Positions 9,896 through 26,340 of a stretch of 34,030 nt of DNA are shown in pieces (within the stretch, counting starts at the first letter, position 1; each line of letters begins with the position of its first letter). Origin of the DNA: Diploschistes diacapsis (Eukaryota); the NCBI GenBank assembly GCA_023645945.1, contig JALAIB010000089.1, positions 1 to 34,030 on the forward strand. The letters run 5' to 3'. The notes beneath the pieces were generated by a model. That model saw nothing but the letters and a program-made list of their open reading frames with translations. It made no database searches and was not told the DNA's origin. The position numbers and the translations under genes are program-made.

Positions 9896-11496
9896 ATGAG
9901 AGCCAGGAGAGCCTGCGAAGCTTGTAGGCGCAAAAGACGTTGGGTAACTTTATCTACATCTGATTTTGCAGGATCTTTGCTGAAACAAATGCAAGTGCGA
10001 CAAAGAGTTCCCCAGCTGTGTGCAGTGTTGCAAACTTGGCCACAAATGTCCTGGCTACACAAACTTCCGTACTCCATTTGTCAATCTTGATACTGGTAAC
10101 TTTGAGGGCCACAACACAAGAGAGCTTCTGCGGAAAGCGACTACGGAAGTAAAATCTAACTCTCTCCAGCCTTCCCCTGAAATTACGAAAGTAGCGAATC
10201 GAAGAGCAATAGCAACTAATTCCACCATCCACTCCAATGACTCAAGAGTATCGCATGACAGTCCCTCGCTGAGCGTGTCCGCAACTGACCTAAACGTTGC
10301 TTCCGGTACGGTGTGCTCCGATCCAACCAACGCATTCCTTCTCAATACCACGAATTTTCGTTGTATCTACGAATCATTGTGGAACGTGTTCTGCAATGAG
10401 TACTGCATTACGTCCAATTACTGGCCGTGTGGCTTGGCGCAACTCGCCAACCGTAACGCTGTTTTCGACTTGGCTCTTGTTGCGCTAAGCGCTAAAAGAA
10501 TTTCTTTTACCGGACATCCGGAGTTTCTTCATATGAGCTATGAGGCCTATGGAAAATGTTTATACCTATTTCGTTGTCAGCTAGGACGATTGCGTGGCGA
10601 AAGTAACGCTCTGTGGGCGACGATATCTCTTATCTTCGCTCTGTTCGAAGCCTCGTCGCTGGATCTCGCTGAGTTATTCAAACCTGAGCACGAACCATTT
10701 AAACACCTCAGGGGGGCGGTGTCTCTGATGAAAGAATGCGGACCTCGGCCCTTCGCTTCGTTTGGGTACCATGAAGCTTTCCAAAAGATCCGTGAGAAAG
10801 CGGTACGTTGCGCCTTGCTCTGGTAGTCATTGGCACTAATCTGGGATATAGATTGTCATGTCATTTGTTAGAAACGAAAAGTTGATGTTCTCGGAGCAGG
10901 AATGGCTCAGTGTGCCGTGGCAGATCCAACGGAAAGGGTGGCGTGATCTGCTTTACGATATGGCAGCAGTCCTTTCAAGCATTATATTCGATAGGAAAGA
11001 ATCACATCTATCTACCGAGGTCCACATAAAGCTAGTGCTCAAAATCGATACCCGACTCAAAGTTTGGCAAGAAGCCTGGGTCTTAAGTGCCTTCCCTCAG
11101 GTGCTTGCAGACTGCCAAAACCAATGCTCTTTCCGATCTTGCATCTGCTGTCAGCAGGATGTTGCATCCCTTAGTGGGCACGACCTGTTGCTCCAGGCTG
11201 AATTTTGGGCGCTGCAGCTTCTCATCAGTTGTGAACTTTCGCAGTCATTGAGCGAGGGGGCTCATTTTGCCATTGCAGGTCGTTCAGAAGTCATGACTTT
11301 CGCAACAGAGTATGTGCGGACATCCGCAGCTGCAGATAACTTGACCCAAGCTCTGGCACACTCATGTTTTCAAAGGCGCGGTGACGTGCCAGAGATGATG
11401 ACCGAAGCCAAGTGCCGATCACTGTTGCCCTGCTTGGCTCTCAGAAAGTCTGCAAAATTCAAAACCAGAGAGGGTGTTCTAGCAATTGACAGTTAG
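9896..11496 (+). CDS. Zn(II)2Cys6 binuclear-cluster transcription factor
   Basis: Exons 9896-9943, 9996-10802 and 10852-11496. Splicing gives CEACRRKRRWCDKEFPSCVQCCKLGHKCPGY (C-x2-C-x6-C-x6-C-x2-C-x6-C). A fungal TF regulatory region follows (HLRGAVSLMKECGP; FSEQEWLSVPW). Confidence 0.88.
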
Positions 11497-13898
11497 GACG
11501 GCAGCAGATCGAACCATAGACTAGGCAACACTCATGCGTCGTTGAGAGCTGACGACGCCTTAGAGTGCTTCCACTTAATGACTTACTTTTCTTCCGCATA
11601 GCGAAGGTATAATGTAAGGCTGTCGTTTGACTTGTTTGAAATGCCAAACTTTGCTAAGGTGAACGAAACCTAGAAGACCAGGGGGTGAACCATCACCTAC
11701 CCGATTGAGTAACTCGCTTCGCTAGCGTTGGTGTGCAACGTTGGCGGCATCATTTCTTGGCATGCTGGCGAACTTCTAGCTTTTCAAATCATCGATGCGA
11801 TGTTCGTTACCGAAGTGTTCGTTTGTGGACTGCTCTATACTCCCACTAAAGCTTGAAACCAACTGCAGGTTAAACTAGGGTGCTGTTCTCGATCGCAACC
11901 TTGAAGGCAGTACCTCGTCATAGCCGGCAACAGGCGGCTACCACTATCACAGCAGCTCTCAACCACGACCCCATCAAGCCCCGCGCGTCGCTTGATGGCC
12001 CAACCGCCAACTTTGGACCTCCGCTTGTCTCATTAAGACTACCACTGCTTGCTTAACTGTTCATACTTCCAATCCGATCTTAAAGACCCATGCATACTGG
12101 TCCGCGTCCACAACCTCCTCAGGACAGTGATGCCAAACTCCGGTTCCTAAACACCCAAATCGGCACCACCATGCCGGAAAAGTCACCTTCCACAACCGCC
12201 ACCTGTTCTAACTCCAGGTACTGCACCAGTGAGTCGAGCACCAAGCTACCATTAGGCGGACAAAGCATCGAAATGTAAGAGTTCCGATTTGCGTGAACCG
12301 CACAGCCTCTCCCTCCGAAGGCGTGGCTGCCTAGTACGTCGTGTCAAACCGCCTCCGCATGGCCCTTGATCCCACAACCGCCATGCAAAGGTTCCGCCAT
12401 TCTACGCTCGAGCATTGTCCCGTTCGCCGTGGCCCCCCAGTCCAGCATGAAATTTCCGTTCGGCGTAGGTCTTGTTCGCGCCCAGTTTGCCTCAGCCGGG
12501 AGCAGAGTAGATGGCCCCATTGGATGAAGATGCCGTATTTGGCGTCGTTGTATCATCGAGACTCCCGTGGGCATAGATGCTTTCGTTCGTAGGTAGGTTC
12601 GTAAGGGATAACGCCATATATAGCATTGAAAATGTAAGAGATTTCGACACATGTTCCAAATATTCTGACGGTTGAATCGCTTATGGTCACCTGCAAGATG
12701 CTGCTTGTATTAACAGCAACCTGGATCCTGGCTTAATCACTTGAACGAAGGCTGTTGGTACACCAGGTATGAACGTAGAGAGGCTAGAGACCTCCATAGT
12801 CACTCTGACGCCCCAAGACACGCTGGAGACGGTGCATACGCTTGCGTCAAGGAACACTGAAGGGATAAAACATATCTCGCGTATGCGATTATCATCACAA
12901 TAACTACCACGACAGTCATCGATATCACAATGCGAACAGCAGAGTGCAGAAGCTTCCAGGAAGCTCATTAGATAGATAAGTACCATCAGAACCACCTCGT
13001 GTTTTAAATACTTTTACCTCGCGCTATGTCCAGAAGAAACCGGTGAGCCGGAAGCTTCCCTCCTGCCCTTATGGGGATAGAACTTAGCGAAGAGGATGTA
13101 GGAAGTTGAGGATAGCTCGAAAACACCAAGAAGATCCATCTGAGACGATGATCATGTCCACTAAGGGTAGGCACATTTCGAGCCTGGCCAAACCTCCCTT
13201 TCGAAGATAAGTGGGCGCTTACACACTACTCTGTGGGCCTCAAGTTATCGTTAGGCATCCAGCATTACTCAATGAAAGGACCTCACGCACGTGATAGGAA
13301 AGGAGAAGAGCTTCACGTTTCGGATATCCGACGAGACATGAAAGGAATACTTTAAGTGAAACGAGATAGCCTCTACGTAGCAGAAATTGACATTCCAAAT
13401 TTGTAATGACGGTTTGCGAGTGTCTTTACTTGAAGCATCTCCTCTAAAACCCATTCTTGTCTCTTTCTTCTTCTTTTCCTTTTGGACGTGGAGGATGCTG
13501 TTGGTCTATCTACACAACATGTCAGCGATTCAACGCATTAGCTACCAGGCTGCCGCTGCAGATTTTGGGATACCTAAAGCATTAGGCTTTCGTTCTCTTG
13601 GATGGATTAGCACACAGCGCGACATTTAATTCTTGAAGCCACGACACGAATTCGACACGGAGCCACAAAGTATGGATACGTATGGCACTTAGGTAGCGCT
13701 TGGTTGCCTAATATCTCATAATGTATAGTGGTGGTAGCTTGCCGGTTACTGCACGTACATACATACATACAACGCGCGCCTGTAAATACCGGGACTCTGA
13801 GTTACTGCCATATTTATTTAACGGATTCTGCCAGCTGGATATCATTCTCTTCAATACCAGAAACATACCTCTGTGCCCATTGTTCTTCTCAGCCTACA

Positions 13899-15506
13899 AT
13901 GTCTCCATCTGCTGAAAGGCCGCTCCAGGATAAGAGCGTGGCACAGCTTGTCCATATGCTCAATGAAAAATGCCTGGAGAAAAACAGGCTTGGTCCATAT
14001 GGGGGGTCCCACCAATACGACGAGGGCAAGGAAATGCCATCCACCTTCCTGAAAGAGCCAGCTAGCGAAAGCGCCATTGAGAAGCTCCAGCGTGAAGTCA
14101 GAGCTGAACCTCACAACTTTATCCATGGCCTGCCACACGATTATGTTGAGTTCTTACGCACAACTGATGGCATCTACCGTGATGACAGTGACGCTGACAG
14201 CACTGAATTATTCCGGCCTATTTCTAAGGCCAAATTGGAGGAAGACGACACTTGCTTAGAGATGCTGCGGGATGATCTGTCCGACTTGGACGACCAAATC
14301 ACATGGCCAGTGGAGTCCTGGGCGCTTCAGCTTGGAGCGGGTGGTGACGAGGGCCTGCACTACTTGATGGCTCCGGCAGCCACGAAGCAGATAATTGGGG
14401 GTCTGCGGGAGGCTTACAACAAAGCAATTAAGAAAAAGAAAAAGAAAATTAAACAGTGGGCGACAGAGACAGGTGGTAGTCTAAAACAGTTACTCCGAAC
14501 GAAATACCTCATCGTAAGGATGTATCATTGGGCTGCCAAGGTAGAACTGTTCTCAAGCTTCAAACACTTGTTAGAAGACTTCGTTGAAGGCATGGACGAA
14601 AGGCAGAAAGAAATTGACAGCTCAGAAGACTACGAAAACGGTGAGGGAATGGCAGTAGATAATGGTGAACAGGGCCACGAGGAACCGGCAAACAGCCATC
14701 AAGCGAGCGACGATCGCTGCAAGACAGTTTTAGAAGCCAACTCCGACGTGCTCGAGGGCCTAACATTTTTCAGGGCCGGCACCCTGGTCTCTTTGACCCA
14801 GAAAACCTTCAAAACCACCGTCGAGCAACACGGGGGATCGGTCATCATCAATCTCGAGAAAGCGGACTACATTGTCCTCGGTGCGAGGGGCGGGCCCAAG
14901 ACGCTCGACATCATCAAAGACAAGGGCCTAACCACCATTTCCGAAGAAAGATTCTACCAACTACTCGAGGGTAATCAGCCAACTACTGGGACACAGAGCA
15001 ATCTCGCCAAAACAACTACTACAGCCATTCCCTTAAAGAGCGGAGGCACACGTAAGACGCAACTAAAAGGCAAGCCGGACGCGTTCAAGGGCATGGCAAT
15101 GCTATTTGCGGGGACGCTACACTCAGTAACCTTGGAGACGGCGGAGAAAACGGCCGAGGCACATGGCGCGAAGATCAGCAAGAAGTTAACAGACGCGGAT
15201 TTGGTCGTCCTCGGGGCAAGGCCGGGGCCGAAGAGGCTGAAGGAGATCCAGGAAAATGGATTGCAGACGTGCTCGGAGGATGAGTTCCTAGAATTGCTTA
15301 AGAACGGTGCTAATGGTGAGGAAGAGGGGAAGGAGGAGGAAGAGGGGAAGGAGGAGGAAGAGGGGAAGGAGGAGGAGGAGGAGGAGGAAGAGGAGAAGGA
15401 GGAGGAAGAGGAGAAGGAGCAGAAAAGACCTGCTCACAGGAAGAGAAGCGCAAGCACCACAAGCCTGGATAACACTAGGACAAGGAAAGCAAAGAAAATT
15501 GGCTGA
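13899..15506 (+). CDS. Intronless protein with an N-terminal SMI1/KNR4 (SUKH)-like domain, two RFC1-type BRCT domains, an acidic tract and a basic NLS-like tail
   Basis: First ATG is at 13899 within the 592-codon ORF. PASESAIEKLQREV...LPHDYVEFLRTTDG fits SMI1/KNR4. LEGLTFFRAGTL...HGG...ADYIVLGARGGPKTL...ISEERFYQLL and FKGMAMLFAGTL...HGA...ADLVVLGARPGPKRL...SEDEFLELL fit BRCT. Confidence 0.8.
   Translation: MSPSAERPLQDKSVAQLVHMLNEKCLEKNRLGPYGGSHQYDEGKEMPSTFLKEPASESAIEKLQREVRAEPHNFIHGLPHDYVEFLRTTDGIYRDDSDADSTELFRPISKAKLEEDDTCLEMLRDDLSDLDDQITWPVESWALQLGAGGDEGLHYLMAPAATKQIIGGLREAYNKAIKKKKKKIKQWATETGGSLKQLLRTKYLIVRMYHWAAKVELFSSFKHLLEDFVEGMDERQKEIDSSEDYENGEGMAVDNGEQGHEEPANSHQASDDRCKTVLEANSDVLEGLTFFRAGTLVSLTQKTFKTTVEQHGGSVIINLEKADYIVLGARGGPKTLDIIKDKGLTTISEERFYQLLEGNQPTTGTQSNLAKTTTTAIPLKSGGTRKTQLKGKPDAFKGMAMLFAGTLHSVTLETAEKTAEAHGAKISKKLTDADLVVLGARPGPKRLKEIQENGLQTCSEDEFLELLKNGANGEEEGKEEEEGKEEEEGKEEEEEEEEEKEEEEEKEQKRPAHRKRSASTTSLDNTRTRKAKKIG
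15318..15420 (+). repeat. GAG/GAA-rich coding low-complexity repeat (EEEGKE units, poly-Glu)
   Basis: Direct 18-bp repeats GAGGAAGAGGGGAAGGAG followed by (GAG)n. Confidence 0.9.
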
Positions 15507-16986: not shown

Positions 16987-17741
16987 TTAGGCGGCGAAGT
17001 CCCGGGAAACCATGTCACGCGCTGCCATATCGCGAGCGGCAACGTCGCGGGCTGCAAAGTCGCGAGCAGCTAGGTGACGGGCAGCGATGTCGCGGTGAGG
17101 AAGGTCGCGAGCGACCATATCACGAGAGGCGAGATCACGGGGGATCGTGTCACGGGCAGCCATATCACGAGCAGCAACATCGCGGGAGGCAACATCGCGG
17201 GCAGCCATATCACGAGCAGCAACATCGCGGGAGGCAACATCGCGGGCGGCAACATCGCGGGCGGCAACATCGCGGGCGGCAACATCGCGGGCGGCAACAT
17301 CGCGGGCGGCAACATCGCGGGCGGCAACATCGCGGGAGGCGAGATCGCGAGCAGCCAAGTCACGGGTTGCCATATCACGAGAGGCGAGGTCGCGAGAAGC
17401 AAGGTCGCGGGAAGCGCTGTCTCCGGACGCAAGATCGCGAGCAGCGAGGTCCCTGGATGCTAGATCACGGGTCGCCATATCGCGCAGAGCAACATCCCTC
17501 GAAGCGAAGTCACGAGCAGCAAGATCGCGAGCGGTCAAGTCCCCAGATGCTAGGTCCCGGGAAGCCATGTCGCGGGAGGCCATGTCTCTAGCAGCAACAT
17601 CCCGGCCGGCAACATCTCGCTACCTCCAGGTTAGCTTTTTGGTACCTCTCAGTGACCAGGGTTCTGTTGACAAACCTTAGTTGGGGCGGCGATGGCTGCG
17701 CTCGCACCAGCGACGACTACCAATGCCTGGAGGAAATGCAT
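16987..17741 (-). CDS. Secreted tandem-repeat precursor peptide (Kex2-processed repeat protein; candidate RiPP precursor), 232 aa with 42 D-hydrophobic-x-x-R units
   Basis: Exon 1, 17741-17676, encodes [22 protein letters not shown] (signal peptide). A 56-nt intron 17675-17620 has GTTTGT...GCTAAC...TAG. Exon 2, 17619-16987, encodes [16 protein letters not shown]...[13 protein letters not shown]. D and R are conserved across varied synonymous codons. The gene is adjacent to a DUF3328 gene. Confidence 0.88.
16990..17616. repeat. 15-bp-unit coding minisatellite (~42 units)
   Basis: Period-15 array. It has six identical copies of GCGGGCGGCAACATC at 17242-17331 and a 45-bp duplication at 17152-17196/17197-17241 with one mismatch. 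Confidence 0.95.
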
Positions 17742-18874
17742 ATTGGAAGTTGAGATAGCCTTCGAAAATCTAATGGAATTGCGTTGATGGCCTGAAGGAG
17801 TCTGAATCGAGAGTCAGTCTGATGTGAGAAGCTGAGCCGTGCCTGATGAAAGAGATTGGGGGAAGTTTGAGACCTTCTTATACTCGACGAACGCCCCCAA
17901 AGTCCTACATTCTAATAGATGCCAAGGCCTTATCGTTTCTCCCTCCTAAGACAAGCGAGTCTGATCCTGCTCCCTCTAGCTATAGCCTTTCTTGGTCTAC
18001 CGGGGTTGAAATTGATCATCCCGTACTTTCCAAGTCAACCGGTTGCCACCACACCACACGCGTGTTCTGACTAAACGGCCATGCAGGGCCCATGAATCTT
18101 ACAAACCGGAAATTCAGCACCCAACGGAGAGTATTCCCTTACATACTAAGGGCTGGGCATCAATCAAGTTTGGATCTATCTAAAGGAGGTGTATGAGATG
18201 GCATGCTCCATATCCACTTTCTTTGCGGAACCCTAAAACAAGCGTCTGATCAACGCAACCTATCGCAACACCCAACGAGCACTTTGGAGATGATATTGGA
18301 TGCTGGATCATCCAAATTCTGCTTTGATCAACAGGTTATTACTGCACACTGTATCCTTTTTGGCAACCAGCGCCCTTGAAGAAAGAATAATCAACAGATC
18401 CAATCAGCTCGAACACTCATAGTCTTGCGGGGTTTAGCCCCAACAGCTTGCAGAGCTAAGAATTATAATGTATAGGCTCTGTAAACAATCCGCGGAAGTA
18501 GTTTCGTGTTGACGAGGGAGCTTCAGGCTGCGTTACCTACTAATAAATTTACAACAAACAGTAGTGTGCACACTGCAGGGTCTGGTACACCACGGCTACT
18601 GGTTGAAGCGGTCAACAACTTTTAGTACAGAAAGGTACATTTGCAGCGCTGTATTTACAAGCCTATTGGGGGTCTTGTTTGCATTGCTCTGTTCTCCTCA
18701 AGTGCGAATCTTGATAATTCTATTTTTTCTTCTCGGTGATACCAAAAGGCTGTAGGTATTCGGGCCTCTTTCTCCTATATTTCACTTCATTCAAGGACAA
18801 TACAAGCTATCCGTTTAACATTTGACATAGTGACAATAATAAAGAAAGAAGTCTTTTGTTCAAGGAAAACTAGT

Positions 18875-20110
18875 ATGGCTCCTGCATGGATGAAGTCCTC
18901 TCCTTCGTCGCCCAGGTACTCCAAGCTGGACCCAGAAGGAACATTCCTTCCAGCGGACGAGGAGAGAGCAGGCTACCTCACATCAGAGACGGGGAAAGCT
19001 TCAAGGTGGTCACGGCCGGCTTTCTTGAGAACTGTCCCTTGGCTTTTTACGGCGGGCTTCGCCGCCCTTTACCTATCCACCTTTGCGACTCGGACAGCAG
19101 AAAGTCAATGGGGTACTTTCAGCGGCGGGTTGAAGACCGAGTTCCGTAAGCAGAGTTTGTTGTTACATACGTGCATTCCTAATGATGGTCTTTCAGAGCC
19201 CGCCATGCCGCACATCGAGCTTGAACTGCGGCGCTTTACAAGCGGTGTCCTCTTCACTCCTGCCGGAGAACCCTACCGTACGAAGTACCCGGGCAAGCCC
19301 GAGTACGTAGGGCCACCCAGTCCAGAGGTAGACGCCAACTGGGAGAAACTTATTGGTTGTAAGTATCCCGTCAATATATGGCTTTGTTCCAGTCAAGCCG
19401 CGTCTAATCATTGTCACAAACCTCCAGCGCGCTACTTCAGCGTGACGGACGAAGAAGCAGAGCAGATCGCCGACAAGGAGAACAAGAAGACCTGGGATAA
19501 GCACGCAGACTGGGGGTTTCTGAGCGGGTATACTACCCCAGTTATTCACATCGCTTCCACTAGCTGACCATGCAAAGCTTCGACGTCCTGCATTCACTTC
19601 ACTGCGTGGTACGAGCCATAACCTCTCTTCTCTTTATTCTCAAACTACAGAACGCTGACCCAGAAGAACAGAACATGGTCCGCAAAGGCCTCGACGGTGA
19701 CTACTACTACCCCGAGAAGGACCTGTACGAGCACCACTCGCGCAACCATCTAGGTACTTCTGCTATCCCGTTCCCTCATCTCCTGAATGTACCTCGCTTA
19801 CTCTTCTGCCACGCGTACAGATCACTGCCTGGACCACCTCCGCCAGTCCACCATGTGCCACGGAGACCTCACGCCTCTGACGACGGTATACTGGCCACAG
19901 ATAGACGCCTCGTTCGCGCATAGCGAGCAGTGGCACGTCTGTCGTAAATATGAGCCCATCCGCGAGTACACCACCAGCCGTTTCAATGGTAGCGAGGCAG
20001 TAGTCCCGCTGAGCTTCCAGCGGCTGACAGCCGGCCATGGCCAGGGCAGGCTTGCCGAGGGTGGGCACTGTCCGGGTTGCTTGCCGGACATGCCTGGCGC
20101 TGCAAAGTAG
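18875..20110 (+). CDS. DUF3328 / UstYa-family (HxxHC) membrane-anchored oxidase
   Basis: Exons 18875-19145, 19197-19358, 19428-19527, 19578-19608, 19672-19753 and 19821-20110. TM segment (VPWLFTAGFAALYLSTF), then YVGPPSPEVDANWEKL, FDVLHSLHCVNMVRK, NHLDHCLDHLRQSTMCHGDLTP and HVCRKYEPI. These are the hallmark motifs, including both HxxHC. Confidence 0.95.
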
Positions 20111-20404
20111 GAGTGATGGAGGGGTTCGGGGATCGGGCGACAGGGGTGTGCAGATTTCCAAGGAGGGTGGAGATTGGAGAAGAAAGAGGGGTGAGGTAGA
20201 AAATCATCAGCCAGCCAATTGTGCATGTACGAGTAAGCTAGGACCTCACAAACAACCCAAAGAAAAGGAAGCGAGAATGATCAAAACTGTCTCGATTCAA
20301 AGCATACCATACATACTTCTCCGCGGCCTAGGGTATATTGTGTCCGTCCGCGCTCGGGCGCATAATGAGCCTTCTGCAGGCTGCACCCCAACGCAGAGGG
20401 CCCC

Positions 20405-22635: not shown

Positions 22636-24524
22636 ATGGCACTGGCATTGAGGCAGCGTTGGCATCGACGTGCCTTAGTAGGTGAAGCTTCGCATTTTGG
22701 CCCTTCTACGCTCTTGTCCATACCATGCCGCGGACAGCTGCTCCTTTACTTTGTCTCTCGCGTCTGCGACATGCTCCCTCACACAGTCACAGCTACTCTT
22801 CTGCCACTCCAATTGAAGTCTCTCGACGGATACTGGGGCTCATCCAGCACTGTAAACCTTGACATCTCAACACAAGCCGGTATTGTGGTGGGCTGCTTCA
22901 CTATTGCCGAATCCCTGACAGCTATGCTCTGGATCCAGGCTGCCGACAATGTTGGACGAAAGCCGATTCTTGTAATGGCACTGCTCGGGAATGCACTTAG
23001 TTGCTTAGGTGTGGGCTTCTCGAGAAGCTGGATAGAGATGGCTATATGGAGGATGCTTGGAGGATGCGTAAGCCCAAATCCGGTAATTGTGTAAGTCAAC
23101 CAAAGGTTTCCAGAGACTCTCCCTCTCTGTTGCAGCTGAGGTACTAAAGATTGCTCGCAGCGGGACAATGGTAGCTGAGAAGGTTCCAGACAAAAGGTTC
23201 GTAGACCAAAGATGGCGGAGCTACTGAACCCAGATCTGAACAAGCTTCGTAGATGGCTTCCGCTCGCTTATTTACTCATGCCCACGAGTTTCAATTTGGC
23301 GGCTCTTGTTGGTCCAAGTATGTCAAGTCTGGTTTATTGAGTCATTTCCCCGTCGCTCCCAGGGTTGGCTAATAGAGGACCGGTAAACCAGTTGTCGGCG
23401 GTTTCTTAGGCGGCTTTTCTGAGAATTGGTGGAAAAAAGGCCCGCAGTTGGTACTTTATGCGGAGAGCAGCATGCACTGGTTGTCGCGTTTCCCGTATGC
23501 CCTACCGTATATTGCTGTCAGCACACTCCTCGTAATCATTGCAATTGTGGTGCAAAAGTGTGTTGATGAGGTTCGTGCTGGAAGCTCCAACCTGGGAATG
23601 GCTTGAATAACATGCTTAGACTTTGCCGGCAAAGCTTGCCAGAGAAACAAGAGATCACATAGAAAAGAAGATGTTCTTGGAATATGAAAGGACCGGGGGA
23701 GGCGAGTTCCACGAAGATCTTGAGCCAGCGCGCGAAGGCTCGTCGTCTACAAGGTTCGAGGACGACGATGACGACTTCACGACCTCCACAGACACGGCAT
23801 TTCAGAAGCCTCCGCTAAGACTCCTATTCACACGGATGTTTCTGCTCACCTTTCTTACCCAGATCTTCTTTGACCTCCACACTTCGTAAGTACATCTGCC
23901 CAGTACAGGAGTGTTCATACTGATACATGTTCCAGCGCCTTCAACAATCTCTGGTCCCTCTTTCTCTCAGCTCCACGATCCTCACACGAGGCAACAATCG
24001 TATCACCTCTCTCCAGCGGCGGTCTGGGAATGTCTCTCAAAAATATGGGCTATGCGAGCGCTCTACTCGGAGTCGTGGGTCTAGTGCTCCAAGGCTGCCT
24101 TTACCCCCCAGTTCAAGGACGCTTGGGAACATTGCGCTGTTATCAGGCATTCTGTCTTTTTTATGCGGTGGCATACTTCCTGACGCCCGTCCTAAATTTC
24201 ATTCCTCAGTCGATCGCGGCCCTTGAAGCTCTGACCTGGGCAGGAATAGGCGTGATAGCGTTCCTGATTACCATTGGCCGAACGTTTACATTACCAGCCA
24301 TCCCAGTACTGCTGAACAACTGTGCTACACACCCGTCGCGCATCAGCACCGTGCACGGCATGGGCGTCATGGTCTCTGGTGTTTCAAGGACGGTTGGACC
24401 CGTCTTCGGCGGCTTTTTGTATGGGGCAGGTCTGAAGCTTGGAATGGCAAACATGGCATGGGTGGGAATTGGAACATTGGCGATGCTGGGCTGGTTGGCT
24501 TCGTGTCGTTTGCAACGTCACTAA
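22636..24524 (+). CDS. MFS transporter, drug/H+ antiporter-like (YCR023C/ZIFL-type)
   Basis: Multi-exon model that splices without stops: QAGIVVGCFTIAESLTAMLWIQAADNVGRKPIL (motif A), WRMLGG, GTMVAE, SFNLAALVGPIVGG, RFPYALP, SAFNNLWSLFL, GGLGMS, LLNNCATHPSRISTVHG...RTVGPVFGG. The start codon is uncertain. Confidence 0.85.
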
Positions 24525-24854
24525 ACCGAAGTGATACAACGTTGTACTTGAACAAGGGGCTAACCGTTAGACAAACAGTGGTGGAAACTCAGCTGACGTC
24601 AGCGGAGCGAGTCGGAATATCTCCGGATATAACTCGGGCTAAACTCAGTATGTGAGAGATGCTACCATCGATTACCCTATTATTGATGTGACTGTAGGAC
24701 GGCGGACATGGTTTTGCCTCCGTGCTCCACCGCGCATCCTACACTCGCTATTATTCTGGCAAGCTATCTTGCCTCTCTTCTATCCACTTCTTGCCTTGCG
24801 GAAAAATTATCCCTTGACCGCCGCCATCTTCCAGCGTCCTCTGTTCTCACCACC

Positions 24855-26340
24855 ATGAATGCTGAATGCCAACCTCTCGCTCCTCTGCCGCTTGGCCTGT
24901 CCCGTCGACCTCCCACCGCTTCCAGCACCCTTCAAGTTTCTACCTCCTTAGAAGGTGGAACCCCTGAATTGAACGGTTCCGAAGAAACGGCGCTTAGTAA
25001 CGGAACTAGCAGTACCGACGACCTGCCTCCGGTAACTAGACGCCGGCAGTGGACCGTCTTACTCTCGGCGTTCCTCACAATCTGCATTACCATTGGTTTC
25101 AATCAGTCGTACGGTGTATTTCAGGCCGCATATTCTTCGCCAACGGACACCATATTAGTCCCGGACCAAATCAGCAATGGGGCTCTTATTGCCTTTGTGG
25201 GAACCTTGGGTGCGGGTCTCACGTGGGCCGGCAGTATCTTTGTCAACCCTCTTATGACCAGAGTGCCAAGCATGCGCTACATCACCACGCCAGGAGTTCT
25301 GTTGATGAGCCTAGGATTCGGGTTGGCAGGCCAGGCGACACAGGTAAGTTCATAGACGGCTAGATATGCTCGCTTTGGTTTTGCAATCCATCAAGTATGG
25401 CTCGCAACCTTACTCGTTACAGGCTTGGCACCTTCTGCTCACTCAAGGCTTATTGTATGGAATCGGCTCCTCCATGCTCTACTTTCCAATTCTAGCTGTT
25501 GTCCCGGAGTACTTCGCCAGTCATCGGGGTGCCGCCATGGGGTTTGTACTTTCGGGTGCTGGCATTGGAGCCGTTGTTTTCTCTTTGGTGATTCGGGCTT
25601 TGATTACCGCCATTGGAGCACGTTGGGCTCTTAGGTTCCTTGCCTTCCTCAACCTTTTGATATCCCTGCCCATCGCCCTGACGGCTCCTTCTCCTCGTTT
25701 TACCAGCAAACGGCCAACACATATCGACCTTCAGCTGGCGCTCAAACCGGCCTTCTTGTTGTCGGTAGGAGCCGCTTTGCTTCAAAGCAGCGGCAACCTC
25801 GTTCCTCTTACCTTCTTATCCGAATACAGCATCGCATTAGGATATTCTGCAAACTTTGGGGCCACTCTCATTGCTATCAACAATGGCGTTAACTCCGTCA
25901 GCCGAGTTCTAACCGGATTCGCCGGCGACGCATTTGGCCGCCAGAATGTCCTCATATTGACCATTTTGGGCAGCGCCGTTGCCGTGTCTGGTCTCTGGCT
26001 GGGGAGCGTGTCCAACGGGAGCCAGACGCTTTGGATTCTCTTCGTAGTATTCTATGGCGTGTGGGCTGGTGGATACAACTCGCTCTTCCCAACCACCATC
26101 GCCGAGGTGTTTGGCATTCATGCTTACGCCAGTGTGAATGGGTTTGTCTATTTTGTCCGTGGTCTAGGGTCCTTTTTCGGGAGTCCCGTAGCAGGCACTA
26201 TTCTCGGGGAAAATACCAGGAAGAATTATCTTGACGTTGTCTATTTTGACTCCGCGCTTTTGTTTGGCGCGTCTCTCTGTGTCATTGGAGTGCGGTATTT
26301 CGATGCGGTAGAGAGGGGTCGCTGGCAAGGCAAAGCTTAG
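24855..26340 (+). CDS. MFS transporter, monocarboxylate-porter (MCT/Mch) family
   Basis: Exons 24855-25343 and 25423-26340. Motifs QWTVLLSAFL...GFNQSYGVFQ, WHLLLTQGLLYGIGSSMLYFP, EYFASHRGAAMGFVLSGAGIG and GFAGDAFGRQN. Confidence 0.92.

Follow-up and report, generated by a model that had tools for sequence, protein, structure and literature searches.

A candidate single-arginine, five-residue repeat precursor beside a DUF3328 gene in Diploschistes diacapsis

Diploschistes diacapsis is a lichen-forming fungus. In a 34,030-nucleotide stretch of its DNA (here called the window), we found a two-exon gene for a putative secreted chain of five-residue units bordered by single arginines, standing head-to-head with a DUF3328/UstYa gene (Table 1). 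We lean, with modest confidence, toward the reading that this gene encodes the precursor of a four-gene dikaritin-like module, in which the chain would be fully cut and the resulting tetrapeptide backbones would be oxidized by the DUF3328 enzyme.

Table 1. Positions in the window of the predicted precursor gene and of the other genes of the module.
Feature	Position	Strand	Description and basis
Last unit, DFAA-stop	16987..17001	-	TAA replacing Arg codon
Precursor exon 2	16987..17619	-	Opening codon CGA = Arg, then 42 units; gene model
Intron	17620..17675	-	56 nt, phase 0, GTTTGT..GCTAAC..TAG, between Lys and Arg codons; gene model
Precursor exon 1	17676..17741	-	22 codons, ATG at 17741, final codon AAG = Lys; gene model
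Divergent intergenic region	17742..18874		1133 bp between precursor and DUF3328 start codons
DUF3328/UstYa gene	18875..20110	+	Six exons, 311 aa; PF11807 matches and exon model
MFS transporter gene 1	22636..24524 (ends approximate)	+	PF07690; collinear matches beside the DUF3328 gene of metagenome locus L060
MFS transporter gene 2	24708..26340 (start approximate)	+	PF07690; monocarboxylate/oxalate-transporter-like

The spliced gene model gives a product of 232 aa. Eight AG acceptors were tried, and the one at 17620 alone yielded a long product (the other seven, 26 to 47 aa); the unspliced frame runs for 30 aa and then stops. A hydrophobic leader, judged by eye, points to a signal peptide at about residues 1 to 18, followed by a short pro-piece that ends in Lys. 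The sole dibasic pair of the precursor, K22-R23, straddles the intron just ahead of unit 1, as an earlier reading of the sequence alone (the first-pass annotation) had stated. That annotation also took the splice-created KR for a processing device, and this we set aside: no alternative splice form gives a useful product, and such precursors in this genome usually carry an intron behind the signal peptide (six of nine others by script, a seventh by eye). The KR made by splicing thus reflects a common place for an intron and does not act as a switch. The intron model itself is supported by a matching intron in the orthologue described below. A look-up of RNA runs for 17480-20200 listed none.

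Across the 41 full units, pN/pS was 0.31 in the modelled frame. The antisense frame that shares its codons gave 0.38, the remaining minus frames 1.06 and 3.92, and two plus frames 1.14 and 2.6. The border Arg is maintained through five different codons. Since the differences among units are mostly synonymous and the groups of DNA-identical units take in only ten units, the repeat looks like a selected coding repeat rather than a fresh satellite. Plus-strand ORFs across the repeat were rejected as antisense shadows, and Pfam HC2 and Vps4_C matches on it as composition effects.

The 42 units follow the pattern D-hydrophobic-A-A/S-R. They start with Asp in 41 cases and His in 1, and they end with Arg in 39 and Gly in 2 (both DLASG); the last is DFAA-stop, as had been noted at the outset. 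The earlier observation that most units place a hydrophobic residue at P4 and Arg at P1 also held, with L, V, M, F, or I at P4 in 37 of the 39 Arg-ending units and strict LxxR in only 11 of them. At P2, these 39 units carry Ala (21), Ser (12), Thr (2), and G, L, P, and H once each. The repeat region lacks Tyr, Trp, Cys, and Lys, and the precursor lacks Tyr and Trp throughout; Phe occurs in 3 of the 42 units. A patch of divergent units toward the C-terminus (17060-17160, minus strand) contains two His and has Pro at P2 or P3; minor products of a different character may come from it.

A homologue search with the precursor, over 412 candidates, returned a single match, to a TPR-type protein that is unrelated. 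In a second search, the matches inspected among the best 150 of 2372 representative ones were low-complexity five-residue repeats in unrelated proteins, and an atlas comparison gave scores of 0.80 and 0.76, within the chance range. Identity as a pentapeptide-repeat protein (PF00805; A(D/N)Lxx, beta-helix) was rejected, given the lack of a Pfam match, a helical model, and an atlas score of 0.78, again in the chance range. Neither the window precursor nor its metagenome orthologue found a paralogue in searches of the Diploschistes genome.

In the six-exon model, the DUF3328 protein has a weakly hydrophobic N-terminal segment and two HxxHC motifs, HSLHC and HLDHC, both retained in locus L060. A database model of this gene (P0153) treats introns 4 and 5 otherwise: intron 4 is left in, and wrong splicing of the final exons removes the second HxxHC. 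The L060 orthologue favors the six-exon model with both motifs. Two homologue searches with the gene returned only its own records, and no solved structure was found for its record. The best PDB matches of MFS gene 2 were OxlT, an L-lactate transporter, and MCT1/2/10 (E 1e-7 to 1e-4). The module thus includes the linked DUF3328 protein with two HxxHC motifs that serves as a dikaritin criterion in PMC12048977. The contig carries one DUF3328 gene, and the 18 window ORFs scanned include no tyrosinase or methyltransferase and no NRPS or PKS; the Ding definition of dikaritins, under which a cluster has a tyrosinase, a methyltransferase, and multiple DUF3328 genes, therefore does not fit what was scanned here. 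BRCT and Rav1 genes flank the module in the window. The ORF with BRCT matches (13722-15506, plus strand) has a Glu-rich 6/18-nt repeat near its end. A Zn2Cys6-type regulator gene (9896-11496, plus strand; its six-Cys motif, read from the sequence, spans an intron) lies 5.5 kb from the precursor; it was unmatched in 11 kb of L060 and gave no sign of module membership.

A scan of metagenome contigs using the final exon of the DUF3328 gene yielded 28 loci, one of which, L060, has the same four genes: DUF3328, a precursor standing head-to-head with it, and the two MFS genes, of which the second is inverted. Its DUF3328 gene is 67% identical over 240 aa to that of the window, with the same five intron phases, and MFS gene 2 is about 70% identical between the two. 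The intergenic region between precursor and DUF3328 gene is 1794 bp, and no promoter motif common to it and its window counterpart rose above shuffle level. The neighbors in L060 are a histidine phosphatase gene and a tRNA ligase gene; because these flanks differ from those of the window, the four genes move as a set.

In L060, the leader of the precursor is similar and likewise ends in Lys; a phase-0 intron lies after this same Lys, and then come Arg and 16 units. The intron measures 62 nt to the first AG past the branch site; an upstream CAG could serve as acceptor too, and KR stands ahead of unit 1 either way. The units are DLVNVER (nine times), DLVDV(N/S)KR (six times), and a last DLVNVAVK-stop, so that nine single R-D and six KR-D borders lie in the same register before D-L-V. 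The single-Arg border reads N-V-E-R, with Asn at P4 and Glu at P2, and the units contain no Tyr, Trp, or Phe. R-D-hydrophobic is common to both precursors, whereas unit length (five residues in the window versus seven to eight) and repeat number (42 versus 16) differ. Among the 28 loci, an orthologous precursor was found in L060 only; 25 loci, many of them short, had none. Locus L059 nearly duplicates the L060 region but ends before reaching the precursor. The remaining two, L066 (3-373, minus strand) and L071 (1-261, minus strand), hold unrelated KR-type precursors whose repeats are acidic, aliphatic, and free of Tyr; the DUF3328 genes that face them head-to-head share about 35% identity with that of the window.

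We then looked at other DUF3328 genes of the same genome. PF11807 matches fell on 27 contigs, and the 26 others were examined as stretches of 10 kb or shorter; nine held a repeat precursor, and 17 showed none. Single-Arg borders occur in six of the nine, with an aliphatic P4 in all (VEAR, IVNR/IANR, LASR/IASR, VHER, VAGR, LNAR), compared with 42 of 173 single Arg (24%) in ten window ORFs; the corresponding chance figure of 0.0002 is optimistic, as four of the six had their borders chosen by eye using a pattern that contained the motif. In L033, L047, and L048, a single-Arg border takes the position held by KR or RR in sister units. No inter-unit dibasic site is present in 4 of the 10 DUF3328-linked precursors (the window gene, L045, L046, and L050), and L052 has one.

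These paralogous precursors vary in other respects. L046 (2878, minus strand) has single-Arg borders only (LASR/IASR), and L048 (4689, plus strand), L033 (6434, minus strand), and L047 (2830, minus strand) mix single-Arg and dibasic borders; the units of all four contain Trp or Tyr. L050 (3556, minus strand; contig C106) is intron-less, with seven LNAR borders, 11-aa units, and a last unit that retains Arg; having no aromatic residue past its first border, it is a second aromatic-free case. In L045 (3397, minus strand; contig C291), STE13-type runs of Asp-Ala dipeptides come after the IVNR/IANR borders; its units end D-I/V-A/V-N-R, much like the whole window unit, the last ends DVAN-stop, and more than one HxxHC gene lies close by. 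L049 (4708, plus strand), L052 (3673, plus strand), and L057 (3827, minus strand) are dibasic-type precursors adjoining DUF3328 genes, characterized, in that order, by units ending RCLAGF, a 29-aa His/Tyr unit, and IGNGY. A short repeated DNA element that reads as TDTDT and so on, common to L041 (6456-6802) and L048 (near 6745) beside DUF3328 loci, is probably non-coding. The genome has one kexin gene, with a P domain and a membrane tail, and S10 carboxypeptidase matches on 8 contigs.

Can the single-Arg borders of the window be Kex2 sites, as the first-pass annotation predicted? Kex2 needs Arg at P1, tolerates a non-basic P2, and prefers an aliphatic P4 (PMC8528282; 10.1101/2020.05.27.120113), and its sites are enriched for Asp/Glu at P1' and A/V/L at P2' (PMC2515848). 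Cuts after single Arg in KEP peptides have been observed in Pichia (PMC9769878). The residues Arg, Thr, Pro, and Glu, along with Ile, are given as the best five non-Lys P2 residues (PMC8528282), and the Ala or Ser found at 33 of the 39 window sites is not among them. Because single R-D and KR-D borders share one register in L060 and paralogues swap single-Arg and dibasic borders, single-Arg cutting is supported, and we regard Kex2 cutting at these predicted R-D sites as well supported by comparison. The border NVER of L060 indicates that an aliphatic P4 is neither obligatory nor a family rule, so the hydrophobic P4 of the earlier reading was too narrow as a rule. With Asn at P4, the L060 single-Arg border may not be cut. 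The conserved positions all double as Kex2 preferences, and the sequence alone therefore cannot tell which residues form the product.

In the pathway that we favor, the intron, conserved in L060, would be spliced out, and the signal peptide would direct the chain into the secretory pathway. The single Kex2 of the genome would cut KR fast and the R-D borders more slowly; by packing an aliphatic P4, Arg at P1, Asp at P1', and an aliphatic P2', the five-residue unit would offset its weak P2. A Kex1-type carboxypeptidase would then trim off Arg. Full cutting and trimming are computed to give up to 38 tetrapeptides (17 sequences; DVAA 10 times and DLAS 5 times) and 2 nonapeptides per chain. The predicted [M+H]+ values are 375.187 for DVAA, 405.198 for DLAS, 389.203 for DLAA, and 407.160 for DMAA. 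The DUF3328 copper enzyme would oxidize the peptides, before or after cutting, at a C-H of Val, Leu, Met, or Asp, perhaps by hydroxylation, desaturation, or halogenation and not by forming a Tyr ether ring, and the MFS proteins would transport small acidic products.

Precedents for this chemistry exist. DUF3328 proteins are described as copper enzymes anchored in organelle membranes, among which CctR hydroxylates aliphatic C-H (PMC12435403), and phomopsin DUF3328 enzymes desaturate Ile, Asp, and Pro (PMC10880069). A precursor without Tyr or Trp allows no ustiloxin-type ring, which leaves oxidation of Asp or an aliphatic residue as the likeliest chemistry. Tyr is reported in 65.6% of repeats of DUF3328-linked KEPs (PMC7329392) and victorin is closed through Phe (PMC9233826), so Tyr-free precursors beside DUF3328 genes are not unheard of. 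The plain tetrapeptides first proposed as mature species become less likely given the DUF3328 gene, which that proposal did not include. Its companion claim, that the Arg-less last unit equals a trimmed product, survives in part. The last unit is exactly the trimmed form in three of nine paralogous precursors (L045, L049, and L057) and nearly so in L047; however, two of the nine (L048 and L050) keep a terminal basic site, three have a divergent tail, and dikaritin cores are only part of the Kex2 fragment, so that the product is not fixed by this resemblance.

The alternative that best survives, although we consider it rather unlikely, is partial cutting: only KR and the best single-Arg sites would be used, and the substrate or product of the DUF3328 enzyme would span at least two units (in L060, the 13- to 20-residue pieces between KR sites). 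The weak P2 residues of the window agree with this, as do the NVER border without an aliphatic P4 and the KR every one to three units in L060, and known dikaritin repeats are about 8 to 14 aa (PMC7329392). Moreover, substrate structure can block Kex2 (PMC2515848), and AlphaFold2 run on single sequences modelled the window and L060 repeat regions as long continuous helices (pTM 0.40 and 0.41; pLDDT 86 and 94). Yet the window gene has no internal KR, which leaves the piece length ill defined; single-Arg and dibasic borders interchange at equal positions in paralogues; and the last unit of the window matches one trimmed unit.

Full cutting could also be followed by further trimming, a less probable variant in which the leading Asp or the last residues would be a recognition sequence and a final di- or tripeptide derivative, such as Asp joined to one or two aliphatic residues, would be common to both orthologues. 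Orthologous units indeed have only D-hydrophobic-(A/V) in common, and the cores of ustiloxin and phomopsin are sub-parts of Kex2 fragments (PMC7329392). One conserved transporter resembles monocarboxylate carriers, but the resemblance is remote (E 1e-7 or weaker) and is no guide to the substrate, and the four-gene module has no peptidase gene.

The same helix models, with Asp and Arg four residues apart in a spacing that would stabilize a helix, are what an intact secreted helical polyampholyte would show, a structural or surface protein cut at KR only and possibly oxidized along its length by the DUF3328 enzyme. We consider this improbable: the six internal KR sites in L060 are expected Kex2 targets, neither repeat number nor unit length is conserved, and single-sequence helix predictions for Ala-rich repeats are weak evidence. 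Least credible of all is that the tetrapeptides stay unmodified, or that another Arg-specific protease does the cutting, with a different target for the DUF3328 gene. Units rich in Ala have few evident reactive groups, KEP peptides are commonly linear and unmodified (PMC9769878), and some DUF3328 proteins use non-ribosomal substrates (PMC12435403), but the head-to-head linkage is preserved in two different genomic settings and the scanned window ORFs supply neither an NRPS nor a PKS.

Fully cut, DUF3328-oxidized tetrapeptides thus remain our preferred reading, and the module makes it possible to ask, with just two genes, whether DUF3328 enzymes can modify ribosomal peptides without an aromatic ring. 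A lichen RiPP survey describes DUF3328 clusters without a recognizable precursor (PMC12048977). More speculatively, and below the level at which we would call it probable, the whole unit may be a compressed single-Arg Kex2 site, with a lone DUF3328 copper enzyme oxidizing non-aromatic Asp-initial peptides of four to six residues into linear bulk products (e.g., hydroxy- or dehydro-Asp/Val/Leu acids, possibly metal chelators), and single-Arg precursors may explain part of the precursor-less lichen DUF3328 loci.

How does the gene compare with known systems? Like KEPs, it has an N-terminal signal peptide (a leader read from the sequence, with a similar one in L060) and more than the three internal repeats that define them, in tandem, with predicted Kex2/Kex1 release of many peptides; its 42 units would rank second in one survey, after 129 and ahead of 38 (PMC6339444). 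Both main surveys, however, define KEPs by dibasic sites between units, and the window gene has none of these (KR/RR/KK, or RK), only the KR before unit 1. Le Marquer 2019 takes KR/RR/KK as cut sites and requires four fragments (PMC6339444); Umemura 2020 asks for three repeats that lie between dibasic sites and measure at least 8 aa (PMC7329392), longer than the 5-aa units here. The gene falls outside both rules as stated there, which bears out the first-pass annotation's view that KR-based screens would miss it. The surveys therefore have a blind spot for single-Arg precursors, and loosening the rule to R-D or R-E and aliphatic-x-x-R would be a cheap, testable fix in genome mining. The unit motifs of the window were not found in supplementary files of PMC7329392 and PMC6339444, which mostly list accessions. 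In the literature searched, which included few subscription papers, we found no description of a single-Arg, five-residue, aromatic-free DUF3328 precursor; supplements may list such proteins.

MiSSP8 of Laccaria bicolor (10.1101/218131) likewise has very short Asp-initial units, a predicted tetrapeptide, and a last unit without a basic site, and its DSDWRR is released by Kex2 in vitro. It differs in its RR borders, its four units, and its basidiomycete host; the accessible text of that report mentions no DUF3328 link, and the peptides were undetected in vivo. The K2PP effectors share the non-canonical aliphatic-x-x-R Kex2 motif (10.1101/2020.05.27.120113, PMC8528282). In these, however, one cut frees a folded domain that makes up more than half of the protein, whereas the repeats of the window precursor reach the stop codon with no domain past them, and LxxR is the exception among its borders.

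The closest likeness is to the dikaritins (asperipin-2a, ustiloxin, phomopsin, and epichloecyclin), which also combine a secreted multi-unit precursor, a DUF3328 protein with two HxxHC motifs, and transporters in a small cluster (PMC7329392, PMC12048977, PMC10540207). Their borders are KR and their units about 8 to 27 residues, in contrast to the single-Arg, 5-residue units here, and their cores are only part of the Kex2 fragment (repeats of about 13 to 14 aa, cores YAIG/YVIP; PMC7329392). Unlike the ustiloxin, phomopsin, and asperipin type, the window precursor has no core Tyr for aryl-ether cyclization and hence no Tyr-ether macrocycle, and unlike dikaritin loci, its conserved module has no tyrosinase, methyltransferase, or peptidase. 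The window gene resembles the precursor of a small dikaritin-type cluster in how it would work, and it is neither a canonical KEP nor an ustiloxin-type dikaritin.
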